From a virus (taxonomy: Duplodnaviria; Heunggongvirae; Uroviricota; Caudoviricetes), in the IMG/VR virus record IMGVR_UViG_3300031998_000026, positions 51,528 to 115,527 of that record: DNA of 64,000 bases; one strand, given 5' to 3'. Of the stretch, positions 1,673 through 44,908 are shown one piece after another; position 1 is the stretch's first letter, and every line of letters starts with the position of its first letter. The notes under the pieces were generated by a model. The model was not told the DNA's origin, did no database searches, and saw only the letters and a program-made list of their open reading frames with translations. A program made the translations under genes and the position numbers.

Positions 1673-1713
1673 GGTGACGACCTCCGTAAAATATTTCTTA
1701 TATTCTAGTAAAA

Positions 1714-10771: not shown

Positions 10772-11186
10772 ACTCGGCGAAGACAGGGCTCAAATCATAC
10801 TCAACGCCATCCACAACGACCCAACGTTCTTCTTGAGTGACGGATGGTGCGAGGACCACAATGTGACCAAGGATGAGTGCGAGACGTTCCTCGAATACGG
10901 ACTGCGTCTCGCAAAGATGTACGACTGGCGCGCGGTCAACAGCGAGGTCGGGTCTGTCGAGGTGGGCCTGACGTTCACCAGCCACAGCGGCAAGGTCGGC
11001 TCCGAGGAGGAGAAGTGGACGGTGTTCGCCCCCCAGACGGACACGGCGAGGATAATGCGCGTCGCGGAGACGGGCAGGGTCACCGCGGTACTCACCCCCG
11101 AGCAGATGCCGCTGCCGCTCGACGAGGGCATGGGCGTCTTCGACATAGAGACGGGCGAGGTAATAAGTCAGTCACCCCACGCCTAA
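10761..11186 (+). CDS. Hypothetical protein whose C-terminal 8 codons lie inside the inserted mini-element
   Basis: ORF ends ...EVI|SQSPHA*; the last 8 codons fall within the left end of the omega-RNA-like element. Confidence 0.45.
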   Translation: MQGRLGEDRAQIILNAIHNDPTFFLSDGWCEDHNVTKDECETFLEYGLRLAKMYDWRAVNSEVGSVEVGLTFTSHSGKVGSEEEKWTVFAPQTDTARIMRVAETGRVTAVLTPEQMPLPLDEGMGVFDIETGEVISQSPHA

Positions 11187-11490
11187 ATGCGGGGGCTTGA
11201 AAGCCCTGACTGACTAGCCTGAGCGCCTCGGGCGCTACGTTGCCGACGAATGCATAGGCACCCTGGGATGTCCGCCCTAGTCCCAGGCACTGCGGCAGGT
11301 GGTTAAAGGCTCCGAGGGGTAGGAGCGGTGCCGCCTGCGGGAAACCGTCGGACAACATTGGCGAAGGGCAACTTACGGTTCGGCGCATACCGGCTTACAG
11401 CATAAAATGCGCCACTTCGTCAATATTGTGCAGCATCCTAGTAGAGAGGAGAGGTGCGGCTCCTCCCCATGCCTAAAGGCAGGGGTTCCC
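11167..11490 (+). mobile_element. Non-autonomous omega-RNA-only derivative of the IscB element (iscB deleted)
   Basis: Left end AGTCAGTCACCCCACGCCTAAATGCGGGGGCTTG, internal GGACAACATTGGCGA, and right-end hairpin CCTCCCCATGCCTAAAGGCAGGGG are all shared with the IscB element at 25414-26955; no ORF between the ends. Confidence 0.6.
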
Positions 11491-22883: not shown

Positions 22884-23443
22884 TGGGCAATCTAACGTAC
22901 GAACTTCCAACGTACGAACTACGAGCCAGATTGGACAAGCTGGGCGTGGAGTGGACGTATGCAAACGGAACGGTAAGGTTCAACGACGGCAGGCGCTGGT
23001 TCCGCGCATGGGCGTACAACGATGACTTGCTATGCGTTTCGATGGGCTACCTCACCCCCGAGCAGGCAATCGCCGCGACGGTGGGCAACGCACGAGAACC
23101 TTCCGATTCCGTTATAGAGCGCATAGAGCGATTCTGCACTGACTATGCGCAATGTCTGATAAACTCCACGATTCTCAGCAAGCGCAATCACGAGTTCGTA
23201 GACCGAAGGGCGGCGGAGAAAGCCGAGGTCGTGGAAGCCGATTTGATACGCGAGCTTGCCGAGGACATAGCGACGGTGGGCGCGGGGACGTGCAACATGG
23301 AGCCAGACGGCTACTACGGAGAGCAATACGGAATCTACAAGTGCTCCAACTGCGGCGAGCTGTGGCAGTTCGACTGCGACGGCCCGAAGGAGCACGGCTG
23401 GACGTGCTGCCCGAAGTGCCAAGCGATAATCAAGGAGGACTAG
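22883..23443 (+). CDS. Hypothetical protein with C-terminal Zn ribbon
   Basis: CSNCG...CCPKC. Confidence 0.45.
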   Translation: MGNLTYELPTYELRARLDKLGVEWTYANGTVRFNDGRRWFRAWAYNDDLLCVSMGYLTPEQAIAATVGNAREPSDSVIERIERFCTDYAQCLINSTILSKRNHEFVDRRAAEKAEVVEADLIRELAEDIATVGAGTCNMEPDGYYGEQYGIYKCSNCGELWQFDCDGPKEHGWTCCPKCQAIIKED

Positions 23444-23445
23444 AC

Positions 23446-24054
23446 ATGGCGACAGCCGACATGCCGACCCCAGCGTGCGACGGCATGAACCGAACTGAGA
23501 TTACCGCGTTGCTGGACTCTGAGCTTATACGTATGAGACTTACCCGAAGGAACGCATACAGCTATTGGGCGCATGAGGTATGGCTCGACAGATACACGGA
23601 ACACGAGAAGCGGGTTGACTTCGTGGAGTTCCTGCCCAAGGGAGGTGTCACGTACAGTGACGCACCGTACATAGAACACGGCACGTTCTCGTTCTATGAG
23701 GTAAAGAGCTGCATGTCCGACCTCAAGAGCGGCCACGGCCTGAACTTTGACGGAGATGAGAACTGGCTGGTTATGCCAGTGGAGATGTTCGAGCCGTACA
23801 AGAATGAGGTAATTGATAACCCGAACGGGTACGTCGCACAACGCACGACACGCTCTAGGTGCCTTTTGTATGGCATCGGGAAGAACGGCAGGCCGACGTT
23901 CTGGGAACAGCCGAGGAAATGGAGTAACAACTGGTCGTGCCGCAAGAGAAGTGCGTCCGAGCTGCTGTTCGCCATGATGCGGGCGATGATAGCGAACTCA
24001 GACCACTCAAACGTCAACCATCAGGTAAGAAGAGCCAAGGAGGAATCCGAATGA
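23446..24054 (+). CDS. Hypothetical protein, possible PD-(D/E)xK-fold nuclease
   Basis: VDFVEF...FYEVKSC resembles the D/ExK core; weak. Confidence 0.35.
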   Translation: MATADMPTPACDGMNRTEITALLDSELIRMRLTRRNAYSYWAHEVWLDRYTEHEKRVDFVEFLPKGGVTYSDAPYIEHGTFSFYEVKSCMSDLKSGHGLNFDGDENWLVMPVEMFEPYKNEVIDNPNGYVAQRTTRSRCLLYGIGKNGRPTFWEQPRKWSNNWSCRKRSASELLFAMMRAMIANSDHSNVNHQVRRAKEESE

Positions 24055-24215
24055 ACGCGACAATCGAACAGCTGGAAACCCTGCGCACCCCACTCGCGAC
24101 CATCACGCCCGTTGTGTGGCGCGACGGTGACATGTGCGGGCTGGCGAGCGTGAGGGTCACTCCGACATGTCCGCTGGCGCGGCTGCTGGGAGCGATTGCG
24201 AGGGCAGTCGCATGA
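24051..24215 (+). CDS. Hypothetical small protein
   Basis: 54 aa. Confidence 0.3.
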   Translation: MNATIEQLETLRTPLATITPVVWRDGDMCGLASVRVTPTCPLARLLGAIARAVA

Positions 24216-24448
24216 CCGACGAGCAACGCGCCAAGCGAATCCACCATCACATGTATGAGACCTGCGAAGGCATCGCCGAGCACGCAGAGCGAATCGTGCG
24301 ACTTGAGGACGAGAACGAGAAGCTGCGAATCATTGTGTGCAATTGGTATCCGCACATGGTCAAGCGAGTCGGCATCGACGCCCTGACTCAGTGGGGGTAC
24401 ATGGACGTGCTTCGCGAGCTGGGAATCGAGGTGACCGAGAATGAATGA
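24212..24448 (+). CDS. Hypothetical small protein
   Basis: 78 aa. Confidence 0.4.
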   Translation: MTDEQRAKRIHHHMYETCEGIAEHAERIVRLEDENEKLRIIVCNWYPHMVKRVGIDALTQWGYMDVLRELGIEVTENE

Positions 24449-24821
24449 CTACAACAAAGGCGCACTGCCAGACCCATGTCTGAGGCTGGACTACGGATTC
24501 GGCGAGCAGTGGGCGTCGGTCGAGCTTGGCGACGGCACGGGATACGTCAGACTAGTCGACTATGAGAAGGCCGTGGCCGAGAACGCCAAACTGCGTCGAG
24601 CGTCAGAGCGGGATGCAGACGTCATGGAGTCGCTGAATCTATCGCTTGAGGAAGCACAGGCCGAGAACGACAAGCTGCGGGAGATGGTCGATGGGCTTAC
24701 ATGGTGCTGTGAGCATTACTCCTGTAGACAAGAGTGCCCGCTGTATGACGTGTCCGAGCCTGACCATTGCCGCGAAGTATCAATCAAGCGCGAGCTGGGA
24801 ATCGAGGTCGAAGATGACTGA
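24441..24821 (+). CDS. Hypothetical coiled-coil protein
   Basis: 126 aa. Confidence 0.4.
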   Translation: MNDYNKGALPDPCLRLDYGFGEQWASVELGDGTGYVRLVDYEKAVAENAKLRRASERDADVMESLNLSLEEAQAENDKLREMVDGLTWCCEHYSCRQECPLYDVSEPDHCREVSIKRELGIEVEDD

Positions 24822-25239
24822 CGCGAAATACCTCGGACTAACCACGAACCAGCTCGCCAAGATTGCCAGCGACCTCAAGGCAGAGAACAAGAAGCTGCGG
24901 AGGGAACTCGACTTCTACAAGGCGCAAGTCGAGCCTGTGGACGAAGACAATCGTCGGCTTAGGGAGAGATGGAAGGAGGCCTTGGCCGAGAACGGGAAGC
25001 TGCGGGACGCCATGTACGCAGACGCAAAGAGACACGGCCTGCAGCACATGGACGCCGACGAGCTGAGGGTATGGGCCACGAGGCAGGCGGAATTGATAGA
25101 CGCGCTGCGGAAGGTGGCAAAGGACATGTACCCGTCGTATTGCTATGCCAACGGCGGCAATGGCGAGACTTACCTGACCTACGAGCAAGACGCGGACATA
25201 CGTGACCGCGTGCGAGAGCTGGGGGTGCTGGACGAATGA
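24814..25239 (+). CDS. Hypothetical coiled-coil protein
   Basis: 141 aa. Confidence 0.4.
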   Translation: MTDAKYLGLTTNQLAKIASDLKAENKKLRRELDFYKAQVEPVDEDNRRLRERWKEALAENGKLRDAMYADAKRHGLQHMDADELRVWATRQAELIDALRKVAKDMYPSYCYANGGNGETYLTYEQDADIRDRVRELGVLDE

Positions 25240-25463
25240 GCACAGGCTTAATCGTTGCGGTCGTGACGCTTGTCATCGTGGCCGCGATATACATGGCCTA
25301 TACGATGGGCGAGATATCGGAGATGCGCCGAGCATTGGAGCGTATCGAGCGCAGGCAGAAGCTGAGCGACATACCCACGGAAAGGCGGCCAGACATAGAG
25401 GTGCTGCCGTATGAGTCAGTCACCCCACGCATAAATGCGGGGGCTTGCAATAGCCCCGACTGA
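25236..25463 (+). CDS. Small membrane protein with C-terminus replaced by the IscB-element insertion
   Basis: TM helix LIVAVVTLVIVAAIYMAY; the ORF reads into the element left end at ...EVLPYE|SVTPRINAG. Confidence 0.4.
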   Translation: MSTGLIVAVVTLVIVAAIYMAYTMGEISEMRRALERIERRQKLSDIPTERRPDIEVLPYESVTPRINAGACNSPD

Positions 25464-25647
25464 CCAGCCTGAGTGCTTCGGGCACTACGTTGTCCGCGTC
25501 ATGGCACCCCGAGATGCCTCCTCAGTCTCGGGCTCTGCCGCCCGTCATTAAACAGCCCGCAGGGGTGTGGGCAGTGTGGCGGGCACGACAAGCGCGGACA
25601 ACATTGGCGAGAGGAACATTACCGCCCTTCTGGGCGAGGAGGTATTT

Positions 25648-25650
<3 letters not shown>
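25414..25650 (+). ncRNA. IscB omega-RNA scaffold; the guide would be the roughly 16 nt 5' of the left end
   Basis: About 235 nt structured non-coding stretch directly upstream of and overlapping the iscB start, conserved in the iscB-less copy at 11167-11400. Confidence 0.55.
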
Positions 25651-26955
<1,305 letters not shown>

Positions 26956-26966
26956 GGTGAGGTCGC

Positions 26967-27302
26967 ATGAGTGACTGGAAGGCGGAGGCGCTCCGCCACA
27001 AGTACGACCCTTTGCCAGAGGAGCCGAAGCACAGGAAGAAGGCCAAGAAGAGGCATGTCCGAAGCGACCACAGGCACGATTACGAGGAAATCGCCATAGA
27101 CGCAGGCACATACACGTTTAGCAGGGGCGAGCGGCGCAAGAACTACCACAAGGGCATGCGATGCAGGATTTGCGGGAGGTTGCATAACGTGAGGTTTTGG
27201 GAGTGGCGTGAGGAGCCGCCAGAGGACATGCCGCTGTACGAGGTGGACGGCATCAAAGGACTGCTTGCCAAGGAGCTTGGCGAGGATAGGAGGGTGCGGT
27301 GA
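26967..27302 (+). CDS. Hypothetical protein
   Basis: 111 aa, basic. Confidence 0.4.
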   Translation: MSDWKAEALRHKYDPLPEEPKHRKKAKKRHVRSDHRHDYEEIAIDAGTYTFSRGERRKNYHKGMRCRICGRLHNVRFWEWREEPPEDMPLYEVDGIKGLLAKELGEDRRVR

Positions 27303-27931
27303 GTAAGGCGTCAATCATAAAGAAGAGCGTTCTTGCGGGCGTCCTGATTGCGATAGGAGCCTTGTTCTCTATTGCCGCAAGGCCATACGGAAGCGTCGTG
27401 CAAGGACTGTGCTTCTCGGTAGGCCTGTTCGCCGTTCTGTGCACGGGGGCGAGGCTGTTCACTGGCTCCATGCTCGCCATCGAGTCCGTGTGGCGCAAGG
27501 ACATGGGCATATCGGACGTTCTGGTCATGTGGGTGACCCTTTGGGCGATGAACCTGCTTGGAGCCGTCTGCGTGGCTCTCATGGCCTCACAGACGGGCTT
27601 CGACGCGACCGCCACGGCACAGTCGAAGGCGGCGCTCCCGTGGCACTCGGTGCTCATGCGGGCGGTGCTGTGCAACGTGCTGGTCTGCCTCGCGGTGTGG
27701 ACGTTCAGCCACGGCAAGCTCACGACAGTCAACGCGTTGGCCGCGTCGTTGCTTCCAGTCGCGTGCTTCGTGGCATGCGGCTTCGAGCATAGCGTTGCCG
27801 ACATGCTCTACCTGCCGCTTGGGATGATGCAGGGCGCGGTGTCGCTGACAGACTGCATGCGGGTGATTCTCACGGCGACGGCGGGCAACATGGTCGGTGG
27901 GATAGCGTTCGCTTGGATGGTAAGGGAATGA
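27299..27931 (+). CDS. Formate/nitrite transporter (FNT) family channel, short form
   Basis: Six predicted TM segments; FNT signatures ARLFTGS and ACGFEHSVADMLY. Confidence 0.6.
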   Translation: MSKASIIKKSVLAGVLIAIGALFSIAARPYGSVVQGLCFSVGLFAVLCTGARLFTGSMLAIESVWRKDMGISDVLVMWVTLWAMNLLGAVCVALMASQTGFDATATAQSKAALPWHSVLMRAVLCNVLVCLAVWTFSHGKLTTVNALAASLLPVACFVACGFEHSVADMLYLPLGMMQGAVSLTDCMRVILTATAGNMVGGIAFAWMVRE

Positions 27932-28137
27932 GTGACTACTACCTCTGCGACTACTGCGACAACCAACACGTCAAAGGAAACGCCTACGAGTGGCAAGAGA
28001 TGTGCGACGCGGGCGAAATCGAGCCGAAGGTCATGCACGACCACCACGGCATGGACGGCAAGAGATACGACGAGCCAACGTATGTATGCGAGCACTACGT
28101 AGCGAGGAGAGGTGAAGCATGTACGGAGAAAACCTAG
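27913..28137 (+). CDS. Small Cys-rich protein
   Basis: YLCDYCDNQH ... YVCEHYV. Confidence 0.35.
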   Translation: MDGKGMSDYYLCDYCDNQHVKGNAYEWQEMCDAGEIEPKVMHDHHGMDGKRYDEPTYVCEHYVARRGEACTEKT

Positions 28138-28457
28138 GGACAGGCACGCTCAAGAAGATGCTCGTCCGCATCGCGACTGCGATAAACAACGATGAGACGT
28201 ATCTCGGTGACACGATTGCGGAGGACTGCCGATACCTCATGGAGGGCGCGACCGTCCTGTGGCTGGCAGAAAAGGAAGAGGAACAGCCAGAGTGCCGCGC
28301 GGAGAGGACTCTGATGTACGAAGGTACGCCCTACGAGCGCTATGGGTACGTATGCGAGCACACGGGAGAGGAGTACGCGATGGGATGGATGCCAAGGCAT
28401 TGCCCAGAGTGTGGCGGGATGCTGGTGGTCACTGGCGAGGAGGTAGTCGATGGGTAA
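28119..28457 (+). CDS. Hypothetical protein with Zn ribbon
   Basis: CPECGG. Confidence 0.4.
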   Translation: MYGENLGTGTLKKMLVRIATAINNDETYLGDTIAEDCRYLMEGATVLWLAEKEEEQPECRAERTLMYEGTPYERYGYVCEHTGEEYAMGWMPRHCPECGGMLVVTGEEVVDG

Positions 28458-28758
28458 GGTTGCAGACCCACTGAGGGAACAGGTTGAGGAGATATTCAAA
28501 ATCATTGACCTCCCGCATTTCACCGATATAGACGAGAATCTTTGCACTGAGTTGCTTCGTATAGCCGACCAGATAGACCGCGAGCACGAGCGCCGCATGG
28601 AGCAATGCAGGCACGAGACGAAGAGGGCGTTTGCCAAGTATTTGCGGCAGATAACTGCGGAGTACGAGCGCGACCACAAGCGAAAGTCATGGGTGGCGCA
28701 GAATAAGATGCAGCTTGAGCTGGATGTGCTCAAGCATAAGGAGGGGATGGGACAATGA
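28450..28758 (+). CDS. Hypothetical protein
   Basis: 102 aa. Confidence 0.4.
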   Translation: MGKVADPLREQVEEIFKIIDLPHFTDIDENLCTELLRIADQIDREHERRMEQCRHETKRAFAKYLRQITAEYERDHKRKSWVAQNKMQLELDVLKHKEGMGQ

Positions 28759-28943
28759 CTACCATAACGCCGTATCAGGCACTTAGAGAGAACGAGTTCG
28801 CGGTGGTGACGCGCAACGAGCCGCGCCATGTGTACGACCTCTACCCGAGCAAGGACATAGCGTGCAGAATATGCAACGACCTCAACCGCAGGTACGGCGA
28901 CATGTACGAGGTTGCTGCGATAGACTTTGGAGAGACGGCATGA
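28755..28943 (+). CDS. Hypothetical small protein
   Basis: 62 aa. Confidence 0.35.
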   Translation: MTTITPYQALRENEFAVVTRNEPRHVYDLYPSKDIACRICNDLNRRYGDMYEVAAIDFGETA

Positions 28944-29230
28944 AGACAGCGACGTTCTACCCTACGCCTTACGGCTCCACGGACGCGGCGCACACATACA
29001 GTACGGCTCTATACGAGATAGAGAACGGGCTGAATGTGAGAACCACTCAGATGTGCCTGCTCAACTACGTAAAGGACTACGACTTAATACGTATCGTAAG
29101 CAATCCCACCGACGTCGTAGAGATCATAAACAACCACGACAAGACCTACGAGTGCGACCGAACGAAAAAGGAGCTTAGGGTTGGGCATAACTTCTTCAAG
29201 CTCTGGGAGAACGGGGAGTTTGACCTATGA
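28940..29230 (+). CDS. Hypothetical protein
   Basis: 96 aa. Confidence 0.4.
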   Translation: MKTATFYPTPYGSTDAAHTYSTALYEIENGLNVRTTQMCLLNYVKDYDLIRIVSNPTDVVEIINNHDKTYECDRTKKELRVGHNFFKLWENGEFDL

Positions 29231-29496
29231 GAAAGGCGGCTATAGCCACACTCGCCCTCGCATTGGCATTGTGCGGTTGCACAAGCGGCGAGAAGGGCGT
29301 GCAACGAACGGAGGGCAGCCCGAAGCCGGAACTGAGCCAGAGGTTCCTCTGCGACAGAGCATATGCCTTTGAGACGGTGGTAGACTCAAAGACGGGCGTC
29401 ACGTACCTGGTTGTGCGCAACGGCGACAACATCGGCATAACACCACTGCTCAATAGGAACGGTTACCCAGTCATAAGCGAGGAGGTGGGCGAGTGA
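29227..29496 (+). CDS. Putative lipoprotein
   Basis: Signal peptide MRKAAIATLALALALCGC with lipobox LALCGC. Confidence 0.55.
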   Translation: MRKAAIATLALALALCGCTSGEKGVQRTEGSPKPELSQRFLCDRAYAFETVVDSKTGVTYLVVRNGDNIGITPLLNRNGYPVISEEVGE

Positions 29497-29660
29497 TTAC
29501 GCTGGGGTCAGGCATCGTCGGCGTAGCTGGAATCGCCGCGTGCCTCTACATGACAGAGCATGGCTACGAGTGGTGGCAGGTAGCACTCATGGCGCTCTTC
29601 ACGCTATGCGTGATGCCGAGATTCAGCCTTAGCTACAGCCACAAGGAGGACGCAGAATGA
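29493..29660 (+). CDS. Small membrane peptide (55 aa)
   Basis: GTG overlapping the upstream stop; two hydrophobic helices. Confidence 0.3.
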   Translation: MITLGSGIVGVAGIAACLYMTEHGYEWWQVALMALFTLCVMPRFSLSYSHKEDAE

Positions 29661-29923
29661 CACGGGAGAACCAAGAGGCGCTGATACGGGCCTACAGGGC
29701 GGCGATAGAGGCGGGGCAAAGCGAGATAGCCGAGCTGTTGGAGAAATTGATATTAAGCGAGATGGGATCAAACGGCCCTGTGATGCGCGGAATCAAGATT
29801 GGCGATGGGGAGCAGCAAATCAAACCGCCTTGGAACGTGACGTGCGAGCCAGGTGTCACGCTGCTCGGCGCGAAGATGGAATGCACAGGAATCGACCATC
29901 TGAGCAAGGAGGCGACGGCATGA
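29657..29923 (+). CDS. Hypothetical protein
   Basis: 88 aa. Confidence 0.4.
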   Translation: MTRENQEALIRAYRAAIEAGQSEIAELLEKLILSEMGSNGPVMRGIKIGDGEQQIKPPWNVTCEPGVTLLGAKMECTGIDHLSKEATA

Positions 29924-31017
29924 CCGAGAGCTTCGATGGCGCGATGGCGTTCGCACGAGCGATTGTGGCCGACTGTGACGCACCAATACTCGACCGCCTG
30001 CAAAGGGCGCACGAGCACGAGATGGAGCAGCTTCGCCGCTTGCGGTTTCGCGAGGGGTACGAGGCTGGGCAGAGGTCGATGGACGCGGAGCACTACGCCG
30101 TCGCGCTAAGGCTCAAGCACCTGCCGTTGGACGAGGACAGCCACGGCAATCTTTCGCAAATCGCACGGGCGGTATGGCACAGCGACTTCGGCTGGACGAG
30201 GGGAGCGTGCGAGGCGCTGCGAGACGAGCTGGTACGACTGTTGGGAGGCGTCCATGACGATCCTGCACCGACTGCTGCAACTTGCGGCGCTTGCGATGCT
30301 GATTGCGATTGTCATAACCAGCAGCCGAAAGCCGTAGCGCATGACGTGCTTGGCAACGAACGGCACAAGGCGGTGTGCGAGCTGAGGAACGCAAGAGACA
30401 GCATGAGCGACAACTTTGCAGACAACGTATCAAGAATCATGTATGCCATCGACGCGAGGCCGAAGGTTTGCGAACGTGCTTGCGAGGCAATCGCCGACCG
30501 TCTCATTCACCTTCTCGGAGGGGACGAGCCTGCGGAGTCACTTATCGAAACCTTGGTCAAAAACACCGAAGAGCTGAGCAGGCAGGGCAAAGTCAGGTTC
30601 CCGCCGAACGCGGATGGAAGCCTAGACAGCCTGAAAACCGTGGAAGAGACGGCGGCGCTCATAGATGAGGTGAAGATGCGAGCCGACCAGTCCCACGAGT
30701 CAAGTCCCATGAGACAAGAAAATGAGACTGGAATCACCGACGAGCTGCGGAAGTGGGCGAGTACGGAGGTGCCGTACAAATACGGTCACCAGCTCCACGC
30801 CATTGCCGACCGCATAGACGCCCAGTTCAAACGCATCTGCTGGCAGCAGGAGGCCGTGCTGCAACATACCATAGACACAATGGTGGACGAGCGCGACGAG
30901 CTGCAAAGGGAGCGCGACGAGCTGCGAACCGAGCTTGAGGACACGCGTGCCGCCCTGAGGCTGCAATTCATAGCGGATCGCGAGGCCGTGCGCAGGATAG
31001 GGGCGCTGCATGGGTAG
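29920..31017 (+). CDS. Hypothetical coiled-coil protein
   Basis: 365 aa. Confidence 0.45.
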   Translation: MTESFDGAMAFARAIVADCDAPILDRLQRAHEHEMEQLRRLRFREGYEAGQRSMDAEHYAVALRLKHLPLDEDSHGNLSQIARAVWHSDFGWTRGACEALRDELVRLLGGVHDDPAPTAATCGACDADCDCHNQQPKAVAHDVLGNERHKAVCELRNARDSMSDNFADNVSRIMYAIDARPKVCERACEAIADRLIHLLGGDEPAESLIETLVKNTEELSRQGKVRFPPNADGSLDSLKTVEETAALIDEVKMRADQSHESSPMRQENETGITDELRKWASTEVPYKYGHQLHAIADRIDAQFKRICWQQEAVLQHTIDTMVDERDELQRERDELRTELEDTRAALRLQFIADREAVRRIGALHG

Positions 31018-31306
31018 CCGAAGGCCATGGACCGAGCCCGAGGTCGATGCGCTCGAGCGCAACTACAAGAGGTACGGCGGCGACGTCGACGCGTGGGACG
31101 AGCGGATCGACAGGACGCGCAGGGCGGTCGTCTCGAAGGCGGAGAAGCTCGGCCTCGCATGCCCGTCCCGTCGCGGCAGCTCGCTCGAAATGGCTGACCA
31201 GCGGCGGCTCGAGTACGTGGTAAACGAGCTGTGCGGGAGGCTCGGCGTGTCCAGGAGGCAGCTCGCAAGAGAGGTCGCGCTCATCGCGGCAAGGGCCGGA
31301 CGATGA
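31010..31306 (+). CDS. Hypothetical protein
   Basis: 98 aa. Confidence 0.4.
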   Translation: MGSRRPWTEPEVDALERNYKRYGGDVDAWDERIDRTRRAVVSKAEKLGLACPSRRGSSLEMADQRRLEYVVNELCGRLGVSRRQLAREVALIAARAGR

Positions 31307-31554
31307 GCGCATGGTACAGGGAATGCGACCATGTTGCGTCCGTCATGGGCAAGAGCGTCGTGTTCGCCAACATCGAGTACCCGTCCGACGAGCCTCCGGA
31401 CGAGATAGTGATCCGCGGCGTGCGGTACGTGCGCGAGGTCGAGCCGAGGGGCAGGCACATGAGGGAAGAGAGAGGGGCGTATATGCCCCTCCTTTCGGTT
31501 AGGGAAGAAGCCGAGATGGGAGAGGGGCATATATCTGCCCCTCCTTTCTGTTAG
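31303..31554 (+). CDS. Hypothetical protein; its 3' end carries two tandem 50-bp hairpin repeats
   Basis: 83 aa; the last ~85 nt contain the tandem hairpins. Confidence 0.35.
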   Translation: MSAWYRECDHVASVMGKSVVFANIEYPSDEPPDEIVIRGVRYVREVEPRGRHMREERGAYMPLLSVREEAEMGEGHISAPPFC

Positions 31555-31556
31555 GA
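31469..31556 (+). repeat. Tandem ~50-bp direct repeat, each copy with an AGGGGC-ATAT-GCCCCT hairpin followed by CCTTTCxGTTAGG
   Basis: gagaggggcgtatatgcccctcctttcggttagg and gagaggggcatatatctgcccctcctttctgttagg. Confidence 0.6.
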
Positions 31557-31568
31557 AGGAACAAGCAG

Positions 31569-32501
31569 ATGGTCTTTTTCGTAATAGCGGTGATATGCGT
31601 CGTGCTGGCAATCGCGATAGTCGCGAGGGGAGGTGTGATGTTCGACGAAGTCTCCAACGAACCCGCGTACGGCCGCGGAGTGGCGGTCGTGCCGCTCGTG
31701 ATCGCTGCGGTGACCCTGGCGATATCCATGGTCTACGCTCAGGACGCCGGCGAGGTGTGCGTGAGGATAAACATGGGCGGGTCGCTTGACGGGTACTCCG
31801 AGGAGGCGGGCTTCCACGTCAAGGCCCCGTGGCAGAGCGTCGTGAGCTATGACGTGCGAAACAACCTCATCAACCTCTACAGGGAGACGGAGTACACATA
31901 TGACGGTGGCGCGGCTCAGGGGTCGTGCGTCACGGTCAACGACAAGGGCGGCGCGTCGGCCGACATAGACCTCCAAGTAGTCTACTCGCTCGACGGCGAC
32001 TCCGCGCTCGCGCTATACCGAGACTACGGCACACAGGAGAAGTTCACGTCAGACGTGATCCTCAACGACGTGCGTGCCGTGGCGCGCGAGGTGGCCGGGC
32101 AGTACGACACGATTACGCTGCTCACCAACAGGGGCGAGTTCACCAAGGGCATGCGCGACGCCCTCACGAGGAGATGGGACGAAATGGGCCTCAACGTCGA
32201 GCAGGTGTCGATTCAGGACGTCCGTTACGCCGACTCCATCAAGCAGAAGTACGCCGAGGCGCAGGCCGCAGAGGTGGCGAAGTCGAAGGCGCTCAACGAC
32301 CAGGAGACGGCCAAGGTCGTCGCGAACACCAAGAAGATAGAGGCGCAGGGCGAGGCGGACGCGAACAGGGTCCTCACCGAGTCGCTCACCCCAGAGGTCA
32401 TACAGCAGCGCTACATCGACACGCTCAGGGAGATAGGCAAGTCAGGCAACCTCGTGGTGGTGCCCGAGGGGTCGACGCCCATGGTGAACGTTTCGAAGTA
32501 A
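31569..32501 (+). CDS. SPFH/Band-7 (stomatin/prohibitin/HflKC-like) membrane protein
   Basis: N-terminal TM helix, SPFH core, C-terminal coiled coil AEAQAAEVAKSKALNDQETAKVVANTKKIEAQGEADANRVL. Confidence 0.65.
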   Translation: MVFFVIAVICVVLAIAIVARGGVMFDEVSNEPAYGRGVAVVPLVIAAVTLAISMVYAQDAGEVCVRINMGGSLDGYSEEAGFHVKAPWQSVVSYDVRNNLINLYRETEYTYDGGAAQGSCVTVNDKGGASADIDLQVVYSLDGDSALALYRDYGTQEKFTSDVILNDVRAVAREVAGQYDTITLLTNRGEFTKGMRDALTRRWDEMGLNVEQVSIQDVRYADSIKQKYAEAQAAEVAKSKALNDQETAKVVANTKKIEAQGEADANRVLTESLTPEVIQQRYIDTLREIGKSGNLVVVPEGSTPMVNVSK

Positions 32502-32713
32502 TGGGCATCGACTACAAGGCCATCTTCTCGCGCGAGCTGGAGAAGATAGTCATGGAGACGCTGGAAGAGCACGGCATCGAGTACATATACGAGGACGAGC
32601 TGAACGAGATAGTCACCGACATCACGCTCGCAGAGTACTGGCCGTGCATACAGGAGCTCAGGCGGACGTACAAGATGCCGAGGGCGACGGACGGCATCCG
32701 GTTCAGGTGGTAG
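32501..32713 (+). CDS. Hypothetical small protein
   Basis: 70 aa; ATG overlaps the upstream TAA. Confidence 0.35.
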   Translation: MGIDYKAIFSRELEKIVMETLEEHGIEYIYEDELNEIVTDITLAEYWPCIQELRRTYKMPRATDGIRFRW

Positions 32714-32719
32714 GAGGGA

Positions 32720-32986
32720 GTGATTGCGATGATGATGGACAGGCTGTTCGACATACCGGCCGTCGCGCAGGAGCGCGGCTGCGGGACGTGCGCACATGCC
32801 GCGCAGAGGCACGGGACGCATGCGAGGGGGACGTATCCGCTCGTGTGCCTCGTCATGGCGTGCCCCGTGAGCGCGAGCTACGAGGGCATGGCAGGCAGGA
32901 AGGCGACGGACTGGCCGTGCAAGGCGGACTTCGACGACCTCGGGCCGTTCCCGAGGGGATGGGAGCCGCGCGATGGTCAGTCTTAG
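32720..32986 (+). CDS. Hypothetical Cys-rich protein
   Basis: 88 aa. Confidence 0.35.
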   Translation: MIAMMMDRLFDIPAVAQERGCGTCAHAAQRHGTHARGTYPLVCLVMACPVSASYEGMAGRKATDWPCKADFDDLGPFPRGWEPRDGQS

Positions 32987-33155
32987 GAACTGCTCCGGAT
33001 GCGAGTACCTCGTGGTCGACGAGGACGGCATGAGGTGCGCGTTCGTGGGGCTGTGCGTCTACAAGAAGGAGTTCGGCAGGCCGTACGGGTACAGGACCCC
33101 GGAGGACAAGATGCCCAAGCCCGAGAGGAGGGACGATGCCGGAGGACGAGGTTAG
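32973..33155 (+). CDS. Hypothetical small Cys-rich protein
   Basis: 60 aa. Confidence 0.3.
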   Translation: MVSLRNCSGCEYLVVDEDGMRCAFVGLCVYKKEFGRPYGYRTPEDKMPKPERRDDAGGRG

Positions 33156-35932: not shown

Positions 35933-37033
35933 ATGCAAGACTTGAAGATATACGCCAAGAACCTCGAGCGGGCGGCTCGGGAGCAGATAGACACGCTCGC
36001 GAGCCTGCCCGCCTTCGAGGGGGCGAAGATAAGGATTATGCCCGACGCGCACGCCGGAGCGGGATGCGTCATAGGGTTCACCGCCGACCTCGGCGACAAG
36101 GTGGTCGCGAACCTGGTGGGGGTAGACATCGGCTGCGGGATGCTCACGGTCAAGCTGGACGGGCGCGTGGACTTCGAGCGTCTCGACAAGGTGATCCGCA
36201 AGGTCGTGCCGAACGGCTTCGGAGTGCACGGCAGGCCGACGTGCGACGTGGCGTCCCTCGGCCTCAGGTGCTTCGACAGCCTCAAGAAGGTGGAGCACCT
36301 CGACAGGTCGATGGGGACACTCGGCGGAGGGAACCACTTCGTCGCTGTCGACGAGGACGCCGATGGCAACCAATACCTCATCATCCACACGGGCTCGCGC
36401 AACCTCGGGCTGCAGGTGGCAAACATCTACCAACGGCTCGGCGAGGAGACGTGCGACGCCGACGTGCCGAGGGACCTCAAGTGGCTTGACGGACAGGATG
36501 CCGATGACTACATGCACGACATGAGGATATGCCAGAGGTGGGCGTGGGAGAACCGCGAGGCCATAGCGAAGGCCATCCTCGTCGGAATCAGGTCGGATGC
36601 AGATGACGAGTTCCAGACCGTCCACAACTACATCGGAGACGACAACGTCATACGAAAGGGAGCCATATCCGCAAAGGGCGGCGAGCGCGTGCTCATACCG
36701 CTCAACATGCGTGACGGCTGCCTAGTCTGCACGGGGCTTGGCAACGTTGACTGGAACGAGTCGGCCCCGCACGGAGCAGGGCGCACCATGAGTCGCAGGA
36801 AAGCCAAGGAGACGCTCGATGTCGAGGACTTCAAGGCCCAGATGCAGGGCGTGTATTCCACGACGATATGCGAGGCGACGCTTGACGAGGCGCCGGACGC
36901 GTACAAGCCCGCACGGGACATCATCGACGCAATAGACGGCGTGACCGTCACCGTCGACGAGCACCTGCGGGAGGTCTACAACTTCAAGAGCACCGACGAG
37001 TCAGGCTGGCGAAGGAGGAAGAAACGCTCTTGA
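35933..37033 (+). CDS. rtcB: RtcB-family RNA 3'-phosphate/5'-OH ligase
   Basis: MPDAHAGAGCVIGF, GTLGGGNHF, HGAGR motifs. Confidence 0.8.
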   Translation: MQDLKIYAKNLERAAREQIDTLASLPAFEGAKIRIMPDAHAGAGCVIGFTADLGDKVVANLVGVDIGCGMLTVKLDGRVDFERLDKVIRKVVPNGFGVHGRPTCDVASLGLRCFDSLKKVEHLDRSMGTLGGGNHFVAVDEDADGNQYLIIHTGSRNLGLQVANIYQRLGEETCDADVPRDLKWLDGQDADDYMHDMRICQRWAWENREAIAKAILVGIRSDADDEFQTVHNYIGDDNVIRKGAISAKGGERVLIPLNMRDGCLVCTGLGNVDWNESAPHGAGRTMSRRKAKETLDVEDFKAQMQGVYSTTICEATLDEAPDAYKPARDIIDAIDGVTVTVDEHLREVYNFKSTDESGWRRRKKRS

Positions 37034-37086
37034 CATAGCGACACCATCGGGCGGTCTTCGGGCCGCCCGTTTCGATTGGGGGATGC

Positions 37087-37323
37087 ATGCGATTAGGCAA
37101 CAAGGACGTCCACATATCCGACGTCTCCCCGACCCTGCATCACGGCATAGAGTCCGAGTGCGAGCACGGGCACGTGTGGTACTCCACGGTCAGGGTGTAC
37201 TGCATAGACGACGGCGAGCACAGGCGATGGCTCGCGACTTGCCCCGTGTGCAGGCGGCAGACGGAGACGTGCGCGACTTACCAGGAGCCATTGGAAAGGG
37301 CGGCGATGGAGTGGTGGACATAG
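37087..37323 (+). CDS. Small Zn-ribbon protein
   Basis: CEHGH...CPVCRRQ. Confidence 0.35.
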   Translation: MRLGNKDVHISDVSPTLHHGIESECEHGHVWYSTVRVYCIDDGEHRRWLATCPVCRRQTETCATYQEPLERAAMEWWT

Positions 37324-37385
37324 GCACTATAGCTAGCAACATCATAGGGCGGCCTTCGGGCCACCGCTTTTTCTAAGGAGGGACA

Positions 37386-38504
37386 ATGAATCCGAATCGC
37401 AAGATGGCGACGATGAGGAAGGTGGACGCGATTACGCCCATCGACGGCGCAGACAGGATAGAGTGCGCGCACATCGGTGGATGGACGTGCGTCGTGGGCA
37501 AGGGGGACTTCGGACCCGGCGACCTCTGCGTGTACTACGAGGTCGACTCATTTTTGCCCACATCGGACCCGAGGTACGCGCAGTTCGCCGAGCGTGGCGA
37601 GAAGGTCATGACCATAAACGGCAACCCAACGAGAGGCCACGTGCTCAGGACAATCAAGCTCAGGGGCCAGATAAGCCAGGGCCTGCTGATGAGGCCACGG
37701 GACGTGCTGCCAGAGTCCGTTCCCGAGCATGCCTATCGGCTCATGTACGAGCGCAGGGCGAGGCTCGACGGCATATGCGGCGTGCGCGAGTACCACCCCG
37801 ACCAGAACTCACTTGCCGCCGGGTTCATAGGGAAGTACGACCCATACGTGGCACCCAGGACGGGATGCGAGCGCATCCAGAACATAGACCAGGACGTGTT
37901 CGACCTAATCAAGCGGTGCGTCTACTTCACGAGCGTGAAGGTGGACGGCACGAGCATAACGCTTGTCAACGACTCCCGACACGGCCGCATAAGGGCGTTC
38001 TCGCACAACAACGAGTTCGACGTGGGCGAGGGCCAGGGCAAGCTGGTCATGGAGACTGCAGCGCGGCAATGTCTCGACGTGTTCCTCGACGAGAACCCGG
38101 ACATAGCCATACAAGCCGAGCTATGCGGCCCAAAAATCGGGGGCAACACGCTCAGACTCAATGACTACAAGCTGTTTGTGTTCTCCATGTGGGACATGGT
38201 CGGCAGGCGATACCTGAACCCGTATCTGACGTACAGCCATGCCATAGCGAACTCGACGACTCCATGTCTCGACCTCGACCTCGACCAGTTCGACATGCCG
38301 CAGGACCTCATCGAGTGGACGAACTCCCTTCGCGGGTCGGTCACGAAGGATGCGCTCGACGAGGGGATAGTCGTGCACGTCATGGACACGGGCGACCTGT
38401 CAAAGGACGAGCAGACGATGCTTCGCAATGTGCTGGGCGAGCAGATGCAGATGAAGAGCGTCTCGGCGGCGTTCCTGCTCAAGAAGGCGAAGAAGGCCAT
38501 ATAG
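37386..38504 (+). CDS. ATP-dependent RNA ligase (covalent nucleotidyltransferase superfamily)
   Basis: Motif I KVDGTS (adenylation lysine), motif IV-like EGIVVHV; adjacent to rtcB. Confidence 0.6.
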   Translation: MNPNRKMATMRKVDAITPIDGADRIECAHIGGWTCVVGKGDFGPGDLCVYYEVDSFLPTSDPRYAQFAERGEKVMTINGNPTRGHVLRTIKLRGQISQGLLMRPRDVLPESVPEHAYRLMYERRARLDGICGVREYHPDQNSLAAGFIGKYDPYVAPRTGCERIQNIDQDVFDLIKRCVYFTSVKVDGTSITLVNDSRHGRIRAFSHNNEFDVGEGQGKLVMETAARQCLDVFLDENPDIAIQAELCGPKIGGNTLRLNDYKLFVFSMWDMVGRRYLNPYLTYSHAIANSTTPCLDLDLDQFDMPQDLIEWTNSLRGSVTKDALDEGIVVHVMDTGDLSKDEQTMLRNVLGEQMQMKSVSAAFLLKKAKKAI

Positions 38505-43946: not shown

Positions 43947-44019
43947 GGGGATGTAGCTCAGTTGGAAGAGCGCCGGACTGTCTCTCCGGAGGTCGTGGGA
44001 TCGAGGCCCATCATCCTCG
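43947..44019 (+). tRNA. tRNA-Asp (GTC); CCA encoded at 44020-44022
   Basis: Hand-folded: acceptor GGGGATG/CATCCTC, D arm GCTC/GAGC, anticodon stem CCGGA/TCCGG with loop CTGTCTC, T arm GTGGG/CCCAT. Confidence 0.6.
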
Positions 44020-44023
44020 CCAT

Positions 44024-44097
44024 TGGGGCGTAGCTCAGTCGGTATGAGCAGGGGCCTGTTAAGCCTCGTGTCGCTGGTTCGATCCCAGCCGTCCCAG
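44024..44097 (+). tRNA. tRNA-Asn (GTT); CCA encoded
   Basis: Acceptor TGGGGCG/CGTCCCA, anticodon loop CTGTTAA, T arm GCTGG-TTCGATC-CCAGC. Confidence 0.65.
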
Positions 44098-44101
44098 CCA
44101 T

Positions 44102-44173
44102 CGCGGAGTACAGTAGCGGTCACTGGCCGGATTCATGCTCCGGTGCACGTGGGTTCGAATCCCACCTCCGCCA
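44102..44173 (+). tRNA. tRNA-Met (CAT), elongator-type; CCA encoded
   Basis: Anticodon stem CCGGA/TCCGG with loop TTCATGC; T arm GTGGG-TTCGAAT-CCCAC; no GGG/CCC initiator stem signature. Confidence 0.6.
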
Positions 44174-44264
44174 CCAGACACATCCCGCCCCCTGAGGCGG
44201 TGGCCGTTGCGCGGGCCGGAAATCAGCGCCCTCTTGCGGAGTCAGGGGAACCCGCATGCACAAT

Positions 44265-44337
44265 GGGTCGTTAGCTCAGCTGGGAGAGCAGTTGGCTCTT
44301 AACCATCAGGTCCTGGGTTCGAGTCCCAGACGACCCA
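44265..44337 (+). tRNA. tRNA-Lys (CTT); CCA encoded
   Basis: Acceptor GGGTCGT/ACGACCC, anticodon loop CTCTTAA, T arm CTGGG-TTCGAGT-CCCAG. Confidence 0.65.
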
Positions 44338-44341
44338 CCAT

Positions 44342-44413
44342 ACTCCGTTAGCTCATCGGGTAGAGCAGTGGGCTTTTAACCCTCAGAGCAGAGTTCGAGC
44401 CTCTGGCGGAGTA
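44342..44413 (+). tRNA. tRNA-Lys (TTT); CCA encoded
   Basis: Acceptor ACTCCGT/GCGGAGT, anticodon loop CTTTTAA, T arm CAGAG-TTCGAGC-CTCTG. Confidence 0.65.
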
Positions 44414-44424
44414 CCAGGCAATAC

Positions 44425-44498
44425 GGAGTCCGTAGCACAACGGTTTAGTGCGCTGGGTTGTGGCCCCGGATACGAAGGTTCGACTCCTTTCGGACTCC
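44425..44498 (+). tRNA. tRNA-His (GTG) with G-1
   Basis: G-1 opposite C73, acceptor GAGTCCG/CGGACTC, anticodon loop TTGTGGC, T arm GAAGG-TTCGACT-CCTTT. Confidence 0.6.
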
Positions 44499-44505
44499 CA
44501 TCCAT

Positions 44506-44579
44506 TTCCCCGTAGTTCAATCCGGCAGAACGCCTGACTCTGGTTCAGGAGGTACCTTGTTCGACTCAAGGCGGGGAAG
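44506..44579 (+). tRNA. tRNA-Gln (CTG); CCA encoded
   Basis: Acceptor TTCCCCG/CGGGGAA, anticodon stem CCTGA/TCAGG with loop CTCTGGT, T arm CCTTG-TTCGACT-CAAGG. Confidence 0.65.
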
Positions 44580-44840: not shown

Positions 44841-44908
44841 CCATAGAAGTCACTTGAGGGGCGTGGCCTTCGCGGCTGCGTCCCTCTTCCGTACGAAGGA
44901 AGGAGTCA

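Follow-up and report, generated by a model that had tools for sequence, protein, structure and literature searches.

The closest described relatives of the protein reported here are the solved formate/nitrite transporter (FNT) channels HSC, FocA and NirC. In FocA (TC 1.A.16; PDB 3kcu, 3kly, 3q7k and 9g49), a cytoplasmic N-terminal helix docks the pyruvate formate-lyase PflB and gates the pore (PMC11841067), formate efflux needs K156, and the N213D variant is functional (PMC9380403). The E. coli protein no longer translocates once either its N-terminal helix or its six C-terminal residues are deleted. By the definitions of PMC5525234, the central constriction of FocA consists of F75, F202, H209 and A212 (FFHA) and its cytoplasmic slit of L79, L89, T91 and V175 (LLTV), a pattern common to the FocA, FdhC, NirC-beta/gamma and HSC subfamilies and from which YfdC and NirC-alpha differ. 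A phage-encoded FNT has also been published, namely focA in a T4-like cyanophage of an oxygen minimum zone (Gazitua et al. 2020), which was read as an auxiliary metabolic gene subject to purifying selection. Copied recently from the host, it shares 86% identity with Prochlorococcus FocA, is arranged together with nirA and NtcA sites in an operon-like unit, and was read as a nitrite transporter (PMC8115048). The compact phage group described below is itself undescribed, and the literature yielded nothing relevant on a link between NrdD and FNTs in phages, or on phage FNTs beyond the cyanophage case.

A compact FNT gene was identified in the window, that is, the whole 64,000-nucleotide stretch of viral DNA that was analysed (Table 1). 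An earlier note, made from the sequence, had described a 210-aa, six-transmembrane (TM) FNT-family channel here, shorter than bacterial FocA or NirC and encoded by a phage, and all of these statements held up. The ORF list gives the same frame on the + strand with a GTG start; because each ORF in that list already starts from the earliest start codon following a stop, the frame cannot be extended 5'. Membership of the family (PF01226, TC 1.A.16) was confirmed at the sequence level by a match to Pfam Form_Nir_trans (E = 2.1e-45, well outside what chance would give; 155.4 bits, gathering cut-off 34.6) that spans residues 5–207 and profile positions 20–236 of 240. The protein scored 141 bits with the NCBIfam subfamily model TIGR00790, below its stricter cut-off of 232, and did not reach the cut-offs of the FocA equivalogs TIGR04060 (103 bits versus 290) and NF008069 (73 versus 440) or of the NirC equivalog NF008595 (53.5 versus 293).

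The aquaporin-like six-TM fold of the family was confirmed in a predicted structure. The AlphaFold2 single-chain model (pLDDT 94.6, pTM 0.89) has helices at residues 3–26, 32–49/56–65, 71–99, (104–112), 115–138, 143–160/165–177 and 183–209, with TM2 broken by the omega loop (50–55) and TM5 by the S loop (161–164). Foldseek comparison of this model returned HSC (FNT3 of Clostridioides difficile, PDB 3tdo plus mutants) as the best structural match (TM 0.91; rmsd about 2.2 A, range 2.0–2.4 A), with query TM scores of 0.91 for HSC, 0.87–0.91 for FocA and 0.89 for NirC. HSC was also the best sequence match in the PDB (E = 1e-22, 28% identity), and FocA is 29% identical. At 210 aa, the window protein compares with 285 aa in FocA and 257–285 aa among the bacterial proteins.

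Table 1. Positions of the FNT gene, its functional codons and adjacent features in the window
Feature	Position	Strand	Details and basis
111-aa ORF upstream of FNT	26967..27302	+	Basic product with CxxC; stop overlaps FNT start (GTGA)
Shine-Dalgarno GGAGG	27289..27293	+	5 nt 5' of FNT GTG; direct sequence reading
Compact FNT-family channel gene	27299..27931	+	GTG start, TGA stop, 210 aa; ORF list
Omega-loop codons R52-L53-F54-T55	27452..27463	+	T55 = FocA T91, L53 = FocA L89; alignments
Vestibule lysine codon K110	27626..27628	+	= FocA K156, HSC K148; K in 107/109 clade members
S loop and TM5b start, codons E163-H164-S165-V166-A167-D168	27785..27802	+	H164 = FocA H209, A167 = FocA A212
69-aa ORF downstream of FNT	27928..28137	+	ATG overlaps FNT stop (ATGA); sequence and gene calls on identical contig
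Two tandem terminator-like hairpins	31472..31543	+	First on + strand 3' of FNT; consensus scan only

Comparison with FocA showed that the pore itself is preserved. The central constriction of the window protein (F39, F157, H164 and A167) and its cytoplasmic slit (L43, L53, T55 and V129) are equal to those of FocA, and the equivalents of FocA K156, N172, E208, S210 and N262 are kept. The residues mutated for function in HSC (L82, T84, K148, F194 and H201) likewise correspond to L53, T55, K110, F157 and H164, with T55 and H164 aligning with HSC T84 and H201. When residue frequencies were computed over 109 members of the phage clade described below, all FFHA and LLTV residues, and with them the omega-loop Thr and Leu, were invariant, as were N126, E163 and N197 (109/109 in each case). 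FocA residues D88, K191 and N213 are exchanged for R, A and D, respectively. R52 thus stands in place of the usual acidic D/E88, a position that is acidic in only 1 of the 109 clade members, and D168 is aligned with N213.

Both of the signature regions named in the earlier note, ARLFTGS (residues 50–56) and ACGFEHSVADMLY (residues 159–171), are present and carry the functional T55 and H164, respectively, which align with FocA T91 and H209. The formal PROSITE signature patterns both fit the FocA control. PS01006 fits the window protein at residues 122–132 (AVLCNVLVCLA) rather than at the GFEHS motif, and PS01005 has no strict fit in the window protein or in any of the clade members (0/109), because R52 occupies a position where D, E or S is required.

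What is missing is the regulatory portion. Only 11 residues precede TM1, as against 39 in E. coli FocA, and 11 is also the clade median, compared with 39–43 in cellular FNTs. The PflB-docking and gating helix of FocA is therefore absent, as is the N-terminal helix that carries K16 in HSC, and the TM1-2, TM3-4 and TM5-6 loops and the C-tail are shorter than in FocA. The acidic/basic pair D/E88-K191 at the cytoplasmic vestibule has been lost in the core clade, where position 52 is R or K in 70 of 109 members and positions 8–9 are K/R in more than 100 of 109. As both the gating helix and the vestibule charge pair are missing, the phage channel is probably ungated and outside host control. By analogy with E. 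coli FocA, a protein without the helix and the C-terminal residues must work differently, or could be less active.

The carrier is a temperate-looking phage of ~117 kb, of gut or rumen type. Genes in the window are dense and mostly ORFans, reading on one strand to about 47 kb and on the opposite strand from about 48 kb, and they include RecE/RecT, a replication initiator, a sliding clamp, RtcB, an RNA ligase and 9 tRNAs. A holin, a GH25 endolysin and a CI/Cro-like switch are found on the same contig just upstream of the window; the Phage_holin_1 and Glyco_hydro_25 pair is located at about 48.8–50.6 kb of the contig and the FNT gene at 78.8 kb, about 28 kb downstream. The FNT gene sits in a rightward array of early/replication genes and is translationally coupled to its phage neighbors by 4-nt overlaps on both sides. 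Its immediate neighbors are phage ORFans, with Pfam and PHROG scans returning no family match for the 111-aa or the 69-aa product. Its GC content (61.8%) and its codon-position GC pattern agree with those of the window, and an identical gene and neighborhood were found in an independent assembly (117.8-kb contig ERZ27257204 k141_4222975), reached through cluster member P0121, an exact look-up of the window protein having returned no record. A consensus scan found no sigma-70-like promoter within positions 23000–33000; since this promoter/terminator scan performed no better than on shuffled controls, it was used solely to locate the first downstream hairpins, which are likely to mark the end of the FNT-containing transcription unit.

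No metabolic partner of its characterized relatives was seen beside the gene. Flanked by phage ORFans, the window FNT is not beside pflB, unlike focA, and it has no nearby asrABC, in contrast to the sulfite reductase linkage of HSC. Pfam/PHROG scans of about 45 window-region proteins revealed no formate-linked enzyme, and no nir gene was seen among the scanned window proteins or the genes called in related loci. A search for nrdD in the 64-kb window and the 6 kb upstream was negative, and local tblastn with phage NrdDs returned nothing for the window or for locus L016. The contig of one relative is binned in an Atopobiaceae metagenome-assembled genome (MAG), and the host would be a strictly anaerobic gut or rumen bacterium, possibly of this family.

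To place the window protein, a neighbor-joining tree (no bootstrap; outgroup, the best database matches) was constructed, in which about 110 protein clusters of 199–238 aa form a monophyletic phage clade, with a pair of 278-aa cellular FNTs as its sister. All clade members with readable context are in phages; outside the clade, the short FNTs P0151 and P0138 are on contigs too short to reveal their genomic setting. One of the two sister proteins (P0117) adjoins the formate hydrogenlyase genes hycF/G/H/I, a linkage seen only in that cellular sister, and the closest cellular FNT shares only about 40% identity with the window protein. Selection on the gene is purifying, with dN/dS of 0.18 and 0.29 in comparisons with relatives of 89% and 78% identity, respectively, and its synteny is kept across relatives from 89% down to 56% identity, the 56%-identical homologue being on an IMG/VR viral contig. 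ORFan-dense phage arrays surround the FNTs of P0002, P0019, P0098, P0103, P0110, P0112, P0114 and L005, and the arrays of the relatives examined include dUTPase, Thy1-like, DnaB, RNA ligase, Ro60 and Lar genes. Like the cyanophage focA, the window FNT is thus a phage-carried gene of this family under purifying selection; it differs in being truncated, in being at most about 40% identical to cellular FNTs, in belonging to a large phage-context clade of gut- or rumen-type high-GC phages, and in having no metabolic partner alongside.

The earlier note had called FNT channels unusual phage cargo, which applies to curated collections. The GenBank phages contained no close homologue by tblastn, only 10 weak matches of ≤35% identity, and BFVD holds one viral FNT. 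Three of the GenBank matches, from E. coli, are not evidence for phage FNTs: H10 has the host ycaO-focA-pflB flank in a mis-bounded prophage record, and H8 and H9, with alignment statistics equal to those of H10 and a formate-transporter annotation, are likewise inferred to be host focA. The description fits less well in view of the published cyanophage focA and of metagenomic phages, in which compact FNTs recur. Although a pattern scan of IMG/VR with the single protein found no relative, an alignment-based scan found one, and 13 were found with a broader alignment.

Further compact phage FNTs comprise phrog_36362 (annotated as 'unknown function'), UniProt A0A8S5NWF3 (Siphoviridae sp. ctTnV63, 191 aa) and 12 further IMG/VR contigs of 4.8–288 kb. 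Like the window protein, they are short (186–228 aa) and without an N-terminal helix, keep the equivalents of FFHA, the slit L-L-T, the vestibule K and N262, and have often lost the acidic equivalent of D88; their identity to it is only 25–36%. Several of them, unlike the window FNT, are directly beside nrdD-nrdG. In two unrelated IMG/VR phage lineages (L032 and L021), whose NrdDs are 32% identical and both have the T4-type MGCR finger-loop motif, the compact FNT is directly 3' of nrdD-nrdG. Formate is the electron donor of the class III ribonucleotide reductases (RNRs) of E. coli, phage T4 and L. lactis (PMC4390871; PMC4493059). In a third lineage (L023, L024 and L027) the FNT is one gene ahead of nrdD-nrdG; this adjacency is no argument for formate, because the NrdD motif, NCCR, resembles the SCCR of the T. 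maritima class III enzyme, which is inactive with formate (PMC4493059). Locus L011, whose FNT is 42% identical to that of the window, has an NrdD C terminus 6.2 kb upstream of the FNT. As nrdD was found neither in the window nor in the 6 kb upstream, the RNR link for the window phage rests on relatives of 25–43% identity.

With about even confidence, we propose that the gene encodes an ungated formate conduit in the membrane of an anaerobic host that supports phage nucleotide and DNA synthesis. By homology, five copies of the protein would assemble in the cytoplasmic membrane of the host, as is usual in the family, with a narrow hydrophobic pore and the standard Thr/His center in every protomer; the gene would be transcribed together with the phage early/replication genes. 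Formate, as formic acid or as formate plus H+, would then cross the membrane during infection of a strict anaerobe; outside such gut or rumen cells formate is plentiful. Once inside, it is the reductant of class III (anaerobic) RNR and supplies one-carbon units for making thymidylate and purines, and the channel would thereby sustain a burst of phage DNA synthesis. Whereas family membership, fold, an intact pore, the phage location, purifying selection and conservation throughout the clade are shown, we infer the pentamer, the lack of gating, formate as the substrate, the flux direction and the connection with nucleotide synthesis, and an FNT sequence alone does not disclose its substrate, HSC and NirC-beta/gamma sharing the FFHA/LLTV residues. 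The earlier note had left the choice between an auxiliary metabolic role, affecting formate, nitrite or lactate flux, and repurposing for membrane permeabilization. Of these, the metabolic role is favored because the pore is intact, selection is purifying and the setting is one of early/replication genes, whereas permeabilization is disfavored, as the phage encodes a separate holin/endolysin cassette at a distance of about 28 kb from the FNT.

An acid-export role is possible but rather unlikely: the channel would then be a valve through which fermentation end products (formate, and possibly lactate) leave the infected cell faster, preventing cytoplasmic acidification and keeping glycolytic ATP production high during phage replication. 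PMC8914244 and PMC11841067 describe FNTs as bidirectional and efflux as the first role of FocA in fermentation. In keeping with this, K110, the equivalent of the efflux-required K156, is conserved, and the basic residues gained at the cytoplasmic mouth of the core clade would draw cytoplasmic anions. Atopobiaceae, the putative hosts, are producers of lactate and formate. An FNT is, however, already present in such a host, L006 carrying one of 257 aa in an Atopobiaceae MAG, and export would leave the repeated nrdD-nrdG adjacency in other phages unexplained; as for lactate, the only FNTs documented to transport it are of the eukaryotic PfFNT type, which is structurally the most remote match. We consider it improbable that the substrate is nitrite or hydrosulfide, conducted for detoxification or for nitrogen or sulfur acquisition as has been proposed for the cyanophage focA-nirA pair or for HSC beside sulfite reductase. 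The top PDB match in both sequence and structure is the C. difficile hydrosulfide channel, the constriction residues are common to NirC-beta/gamma and HSC, and the published viral FNT was interpreted as a nitrite transporter (PMC8115048). Yet the genes scanned or called at the examined loci included no nitrite reductase or sulfite reductase, the NirC model was matched at 53 bits against a cut-off of 293, the PDB ranking of HSC rests on 28% identity only, and the genomic linkage of the closest cellular relatives is to formate hydrogenlyase.

Very improbable, in our view, is a role in membrane perturbation, in which an ungated channel would dissipate the proton motive force or acidify the cytoplasm and so time lysis, as a holin/antiholin-like helper, or block superinfection. 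Loss of the gating helix would suit such a role, and in the distant 36%-GC phage L007 a holin-family gene is 0.9 kb upstream of the FNT, but no lysis genes are nearby in the other loci examined, and the window phage has a dedicated Phage_holin_1 and GH25 endolysin far from an FNT that is placed among, and translationally coupled to, early/replication genes. Because both hydrophobic constrictions, with their Thr and His, are invariant in 109 sequences, a non-specific leak is not expected as the selected property. That the gene has no phage function at all, being host sequence picked up through wrong prophage bounds or contig chimerism, or else a passenger in decay, is effectively refuted. The E. 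coli 'phage' focA records are such cases, and the binning of one relative's contig in an Atopobiaceae MAG points the same way; the window FNT, however, is embedded in phage genes that extend about 27 kb one way and >20 kb the other, with ORFan overlaps at both ends, a base composition that fits the window, a second, independent assembly, synteny across relatives, dN/dS of 0.18–0.29 and a nearest cellular homologue only about 40% identical.

The surprise in finding such a gene is moderate, since the protein is a clear Pfam family member and a phage-borne FNT has already been published. Most phage auxiliary genes encode soluble enzymes, and membrane channels are rare among them. If formate conduction is the correct reading, phages of strict anaerobes bring their own small-metabolite membrane channel, and phage replication would be tied to formate, a central cross-feeding currency of the gut and rumen; if the flux is inward, these phages would plug DNA-precursor synthesis directly into the gut/rumen formate pool. 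The repeated nrdD-nrdG-FNT order suggests a logic of supplying the reductant that anaerobic dNTP synthesis consumes. More tentatively, compact N-truncated FNTs may constitute a widespread phage auxiliary class that imports formate for class III RNR, whether phage or host encoded, and for one-carbon supply, and may be the first natural constitutively open FNTs, through joint loss of the gating helix and the D/E88-K191 pair. The clade is in any case a natural experiment, in which about 110 clusters keep the pore residues and drop the gating helix, the C-tail and the charge pair, all considered important in E. coli FocA, and a minimal FNT of roughly 200 aa could serve as a model that separates conduction from regulation.

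Two further features of the neighborhood were noted. The 111-aa ORF was weighed as a functional partner of the FNT; missing in L008, L005, L007, L011 and L012, it accompanies the FNT in the window and, among the relatives, in the closer ones alone (L010, L001 and L004). An IscB/omega-RNA element also adjoins the FNT in the window. The FNT was rejected as cargo of this element, as the 89%-identical relative has the 111-aa ORF and the FNT without IscB.

The 210-aa protein is clearly, as the earlier note had proposed, an FNT (formate/nitrite transporter) family member. It was matched by the Pfam Form_Nir_trans profile (E = 2.1e-45; 155 bits, with the cut-off at 34.6), and the solved channels HSC (C. 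difficile hydrosulfide channel), FocA (E. coli formate channel), LciA, NirC, and PfFNT matched it with E-values of 1e-22 to 4e-9. An AlphaFold2 model built with 20 homologues as input (pLDDT 94.6, pTM 0.89) contains the six TM helices that had been claimed, with breaks in TM2 at 50-55 and in TM5 at 161-164, and superposes on HSC with a TM of 0.91 (rmsd ~2.2 Å) and on FocA, NirC, LciA, and PfFNT with values of 0.8-0.9. Both motifs quoted in that note are present and hold the functional Thr and His. The strict PROSITE pattern 1 is unmatched because of R52, and pattern 2 matches at residues 122-132, not at GFEHS.

In the sequence, a GGAGG lies 5 nt 5' of the start codon, which shares GTGA with the stop of the preceding 111-aa ORF; the stop shares ATGA with the ATG of the following ORF. 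Independent gene calling on an identical contig returned the same calls for the FNT and its overlapping neighbours. No upstream extension of the reading frame is possible, and the short N terminus is thus genuine. Codon-position GC (0.57/0.48/0.81) follows the pattern of adjacent genes, and no promoter-like site was found around the gene in a promoter/terminator scan.

Features of the window and of related loci (window positions unless a locus is named)
Feature	Position	Strand	Details
FNT gene	27299-27931	+	ORF, 210 codons, GTG start
Terminator-like hairpins	31472-31543	+	first 3' of FNT on + strand (scan)
HEARO/omega RNA	25415-25622	+	Rfam RF02033, 175.9 bits
IscB, 462 aa, RRXRR+HNH	25567-26955	+	start overlapped by HEARO/omega RNA
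Complete IscB element	25415-26955	+	two genes upstream of FNT
Second HEARO/omega RNA	11167-11376	+	full-length match, 141.9 bits
TnpB-like (IS605 OrfB)	47951-49135	-	phrog_506, E = 6e-110
Eight-tRNA array	43947-44843	+	Asp, Asn, Met, Lys x2, His, Gln, Trp
Separate tRNA-Arg(CCT)	2613-2688	+	
RtcB, then RNA ligase	35933-38504	+	phrog_1075, E = 2e-122; phrog_968
504-aa protein beside 263-aa protein	61040-63392	-	weak amidoligase domain in 504-aa protein (phrog_16683, PF12224)
Band_7/SPFH-type membrane protein, 310 aa	31569-32501	+	phrog_200; PF01145 in relative L010
CI-like repressor	~968-1726	-	
Lysis cassette	L016 3466-5195		Pfam Phage_holin_1 + Glyco_hydro_25 endolysin (477-aa GH25 muramidase); just upstream of window
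Divergent pair	L016 7124-8128		leftward CI-like repressor (HTH + Peptidase_S24), rightward Cro-like gene
nrdD, nrdG, and compact FNT	L032 2216-6531		FNT directly after nrdD-nrdG
nrdD, nrdG, and compact FNT	L021 1759-6618		FNT directly after nrdD-nrdG
Compact FNT, nrdD, and nrdG	L024 6001-9944		FNT one gene before nrdD-nrdG (class III RNR genes)
Acb2/Tad1 hairpin domain gene	L012 8702-8920		directly 3' of FNT
Host ycaO-focA-pflB-pflA region	L014 29121-35675		GenBank PV468777.1

The phage origin asserted in the earlier note is borne out by the gene content of the window and by the holin, endolysin, and CI/Cro genes on the identical contig, of which L016 is a stretch reaching upstream of the window start. 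Genes are tightly packed on a single strand to ~47 kb, and those called from ~48 kb lie on the opposite strand; annotated products include a RecE-like exonuclease, RecT, a replication initiator, a DNA methyltransferase, a PAPS-reductase-like protein, a sliding clamp, RtcB, an RNA ligase, a TnpB-like protein, IscB, and nine tRNAs. On the identical contig, RusA, YqaJ/RecT, and SSB come after the Cro-like gene, and given the divergent CI-like/Cro-like pair the phage is probably temperate. A 413-aa leftward gene across the window start is without a Pfam match and may be an integrase.

A word-index search returned ~110 clusters (90% identity) of 199-238-aa FNTs, all metagenomic and 37-100% identical to the query, some on contigs of up to 124 kb; behind them ranked four clusters (229-235 aa, 41-49% identity), and only after these cellular-length FNTs (267-278 aa, 39-42% identity). 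In an exhaustive profile search members of the clade scored 240-280 and then 175-190 bits, separated by a gap from all others (≤159 bits); many further FNTs of 198-246 aa lay outside the clade, so small size is not peculiar to it. In a neighbour-joining tree without bootstrap support and with a limited outgroup, 113 short FNTs were monophyletic, with clusters P0116/P0117 as sister. Contexts could be read for P0019, P0002, P0098 (an IMG/VR UViG), P0103, P0110 (a 36%-GC phage), P0112, P0114, and a contig binned in an Atopobiaceae MAG (L005). Every one is an ORFan-dense array, mostly on one strand; genes in these arrays encode dUTPase, Thy1-like, Lar, DnaB, RNA ligase, Ro60/TROVE, IscB/TnpB, and Acb2/Tad1. 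Unlike these phage-array relatives, P0117 (278 aa) adjoins hycF/G/H/I-type formate hydrogenlyase genes; L006 holds a 257-aa chromosomal-type FNT in an Atopobiaceae MAG. The dN/dS of the window FNT is 0.18 against an 89%-identical relative and 0.29 against a 78%-identical one.

Residues listed in the FocA mutagenesis paper (PMC9380403) and an FNT family survey (PMC5525234) were counted across a core clade of 109 aligned short phage-type FNTs. Invariant (109/109) are the central-constriction residues F39/F157/H164/A167 (FFHA), those of the cytoplasmic slit, L43/L53/T55/V129 (LLTV), and N126, E163, and N197; K110 is found in 107 and S165 in 104. FFHA together with LLTV typifies the FocA, FdhC, NirC-beta/gamma, and HSC subfamilies (PMC5525234) and excludes the YfdC and NirC-alpha types. 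A median of 11 residues precedes TM1 in the core clade versus 39-43 in cellular FNTs, so that the N-terminal helix is lost; the helix is the PflB-binding element of E. coli FocA, where deleting it severely disrupts translocation (PMC11841067). The TM1-2, TM3-4, and TM5-6 loops and the C-tail of the window FNT are all shorter in the alignment. At the equivalent of D/E88 (FocA numbering), one of the 109 core members has an acidic residue and 70 have R/K, while all 12 non-core sequences have D or E; the K191 equivalent is K/R in 6 of 109 (A in 77), K in 8 of 8 long, cellular-type sequences, and K/R in 3 of 4 intermediate phage sequences. This conserved charge pair has been lost jointly in the core clade. 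At the N213 equivalent, 106 of 109 have D, a change tolerated by FocA (PMC9380403). We infer that pore chemistry is standard and host-type regulation discarded, with the new basic residues R52, K8, and K9 presumably substituting for the vestibule lysine of the lost helix.

The substrate is not readable from sequence. Formate is indicated on three counts: formate hydrogenlyase is linked to the closest cellular relatives, the gene is co-translated with the replication and nucleotide-metabolism genes that surround it, and an IMG/VR pattern scan gave compact viral FNTs, some linked to class III RNR genes. That scan, built on diverse short FNTs, yielded 13 viral contigs, the majority 120-288 kb long, encoding FNTs of 186-228 aa in which FFHA, slit L-L-T, N262, and the vestibule K are retained. 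Loci L032, L021, and L024 come from phages of 122-190 kb (IMG/VR). L032 and L021 represent unrelated lineages (NrdDs 32% identical); both NrdDs have the T4-type MGCR finger-loop motif, and GIY-YIG homing-endonuclease genes interrupt nrdD in both, the intervening sequence in L021 splitting the catalytic motif exactly, between FPPMG and CRSH. The T4 motif is 288-MGCR-291 (PMC4493059), and class III enzymes from T4, E. coli, and L. lactis take formate as electron donor (PMC4390871). In the single lineage of L023, L024, and L027 the FNT is one gene ahead of nrdD-nrdG; the L024-type NrdD has NCCR, resembling the SCCR motif found in the T. maritima enzyme, and because that enzyme was inactive with formate (PMC4493059), the adjacency there is uninformative on formate. 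In L011, from a relative of the window phage group, an NrdD C terminus lies 6.2 kb upstream of the FNT. Neither the window nor the 6 kb upstream of it yielded an nrdD, so the channel of this phage would serve the enzyme of the host or one-carbon metabolism.

That the window FNT is an ungated conduit for formate, in support of nucleotide synthesis under anaerobic conditions, is given about an even chance. Acid export is conceivable, if doubtful, and transport of nitrite or HS- is improbable. By the layout of genes on the window and the identical contig, the FNT belongs to the rightward early/replication array of a temperate-looking phage, lying ~28 kb within that array and distant from the lysis cassette; a role in lysis or exclusion is very unlikely. 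The identical FNT gene is present on the 117,767-bp contig, which is of an independent assembly, and an artefact is scarcely credible.

A published phage FNT, the cyanophage focA, adjoins nirA and is 86% identical to the host gene (PMC8115048). PHROGs holds one unannotated FNT family and BFVD one viral FNT (191 aa). A large divergent FNT clade, phage-only wherever context is readable, its minimal architecture, its concerted loss of regulatory features, and recurrent FNT-nrdDG adjacency in other phages all appear undescribed, nothing on these subjects having been found in open-access papers. The 'Escherichia phage' entry PV468777.1 holds a host focA region, as ON470623 and ON470599 probably do, since their match statistics are the same; a FocA match in a phage database can thus be an artefact of where the prophage boundary was set.

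The IscB element seems to have been inserted in the phage recently, because L010, an 89%-identical relative, has the same flanking genes without IscB. No IscB ORF follows the second HEARO/omega RNA, the next genes being a 123-aa ORF and SSB, and this RNA could be either an orphan guide RNA or the remnant of a lost IscB. TnpB also occurs in relatives L005 and L011, and the window phage and its relatives seem rich in OMEGA-type elements. RtcB, the RNA ligase, and the tRNA array resemble a module for RNA repair that might counter anticodon nucleases of the host; Ro60/TROVE is also encoded by relatives. The 263-aa neighbour of the amidoligase-like protein weakly matches class-II glutamine amidotransferases, and Pfam E-values for the pair are only ~1e-4, with phrog_16683 at 2e-33. 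The Acb2/Tad1 gene of L012 is a candidate anti-CBASS or anti-Thoeris sponge. A second cargo gene with a membrane-associated product is the Band_7/SPFH-type one, which lies 3.6 kb downstream of the FNT.
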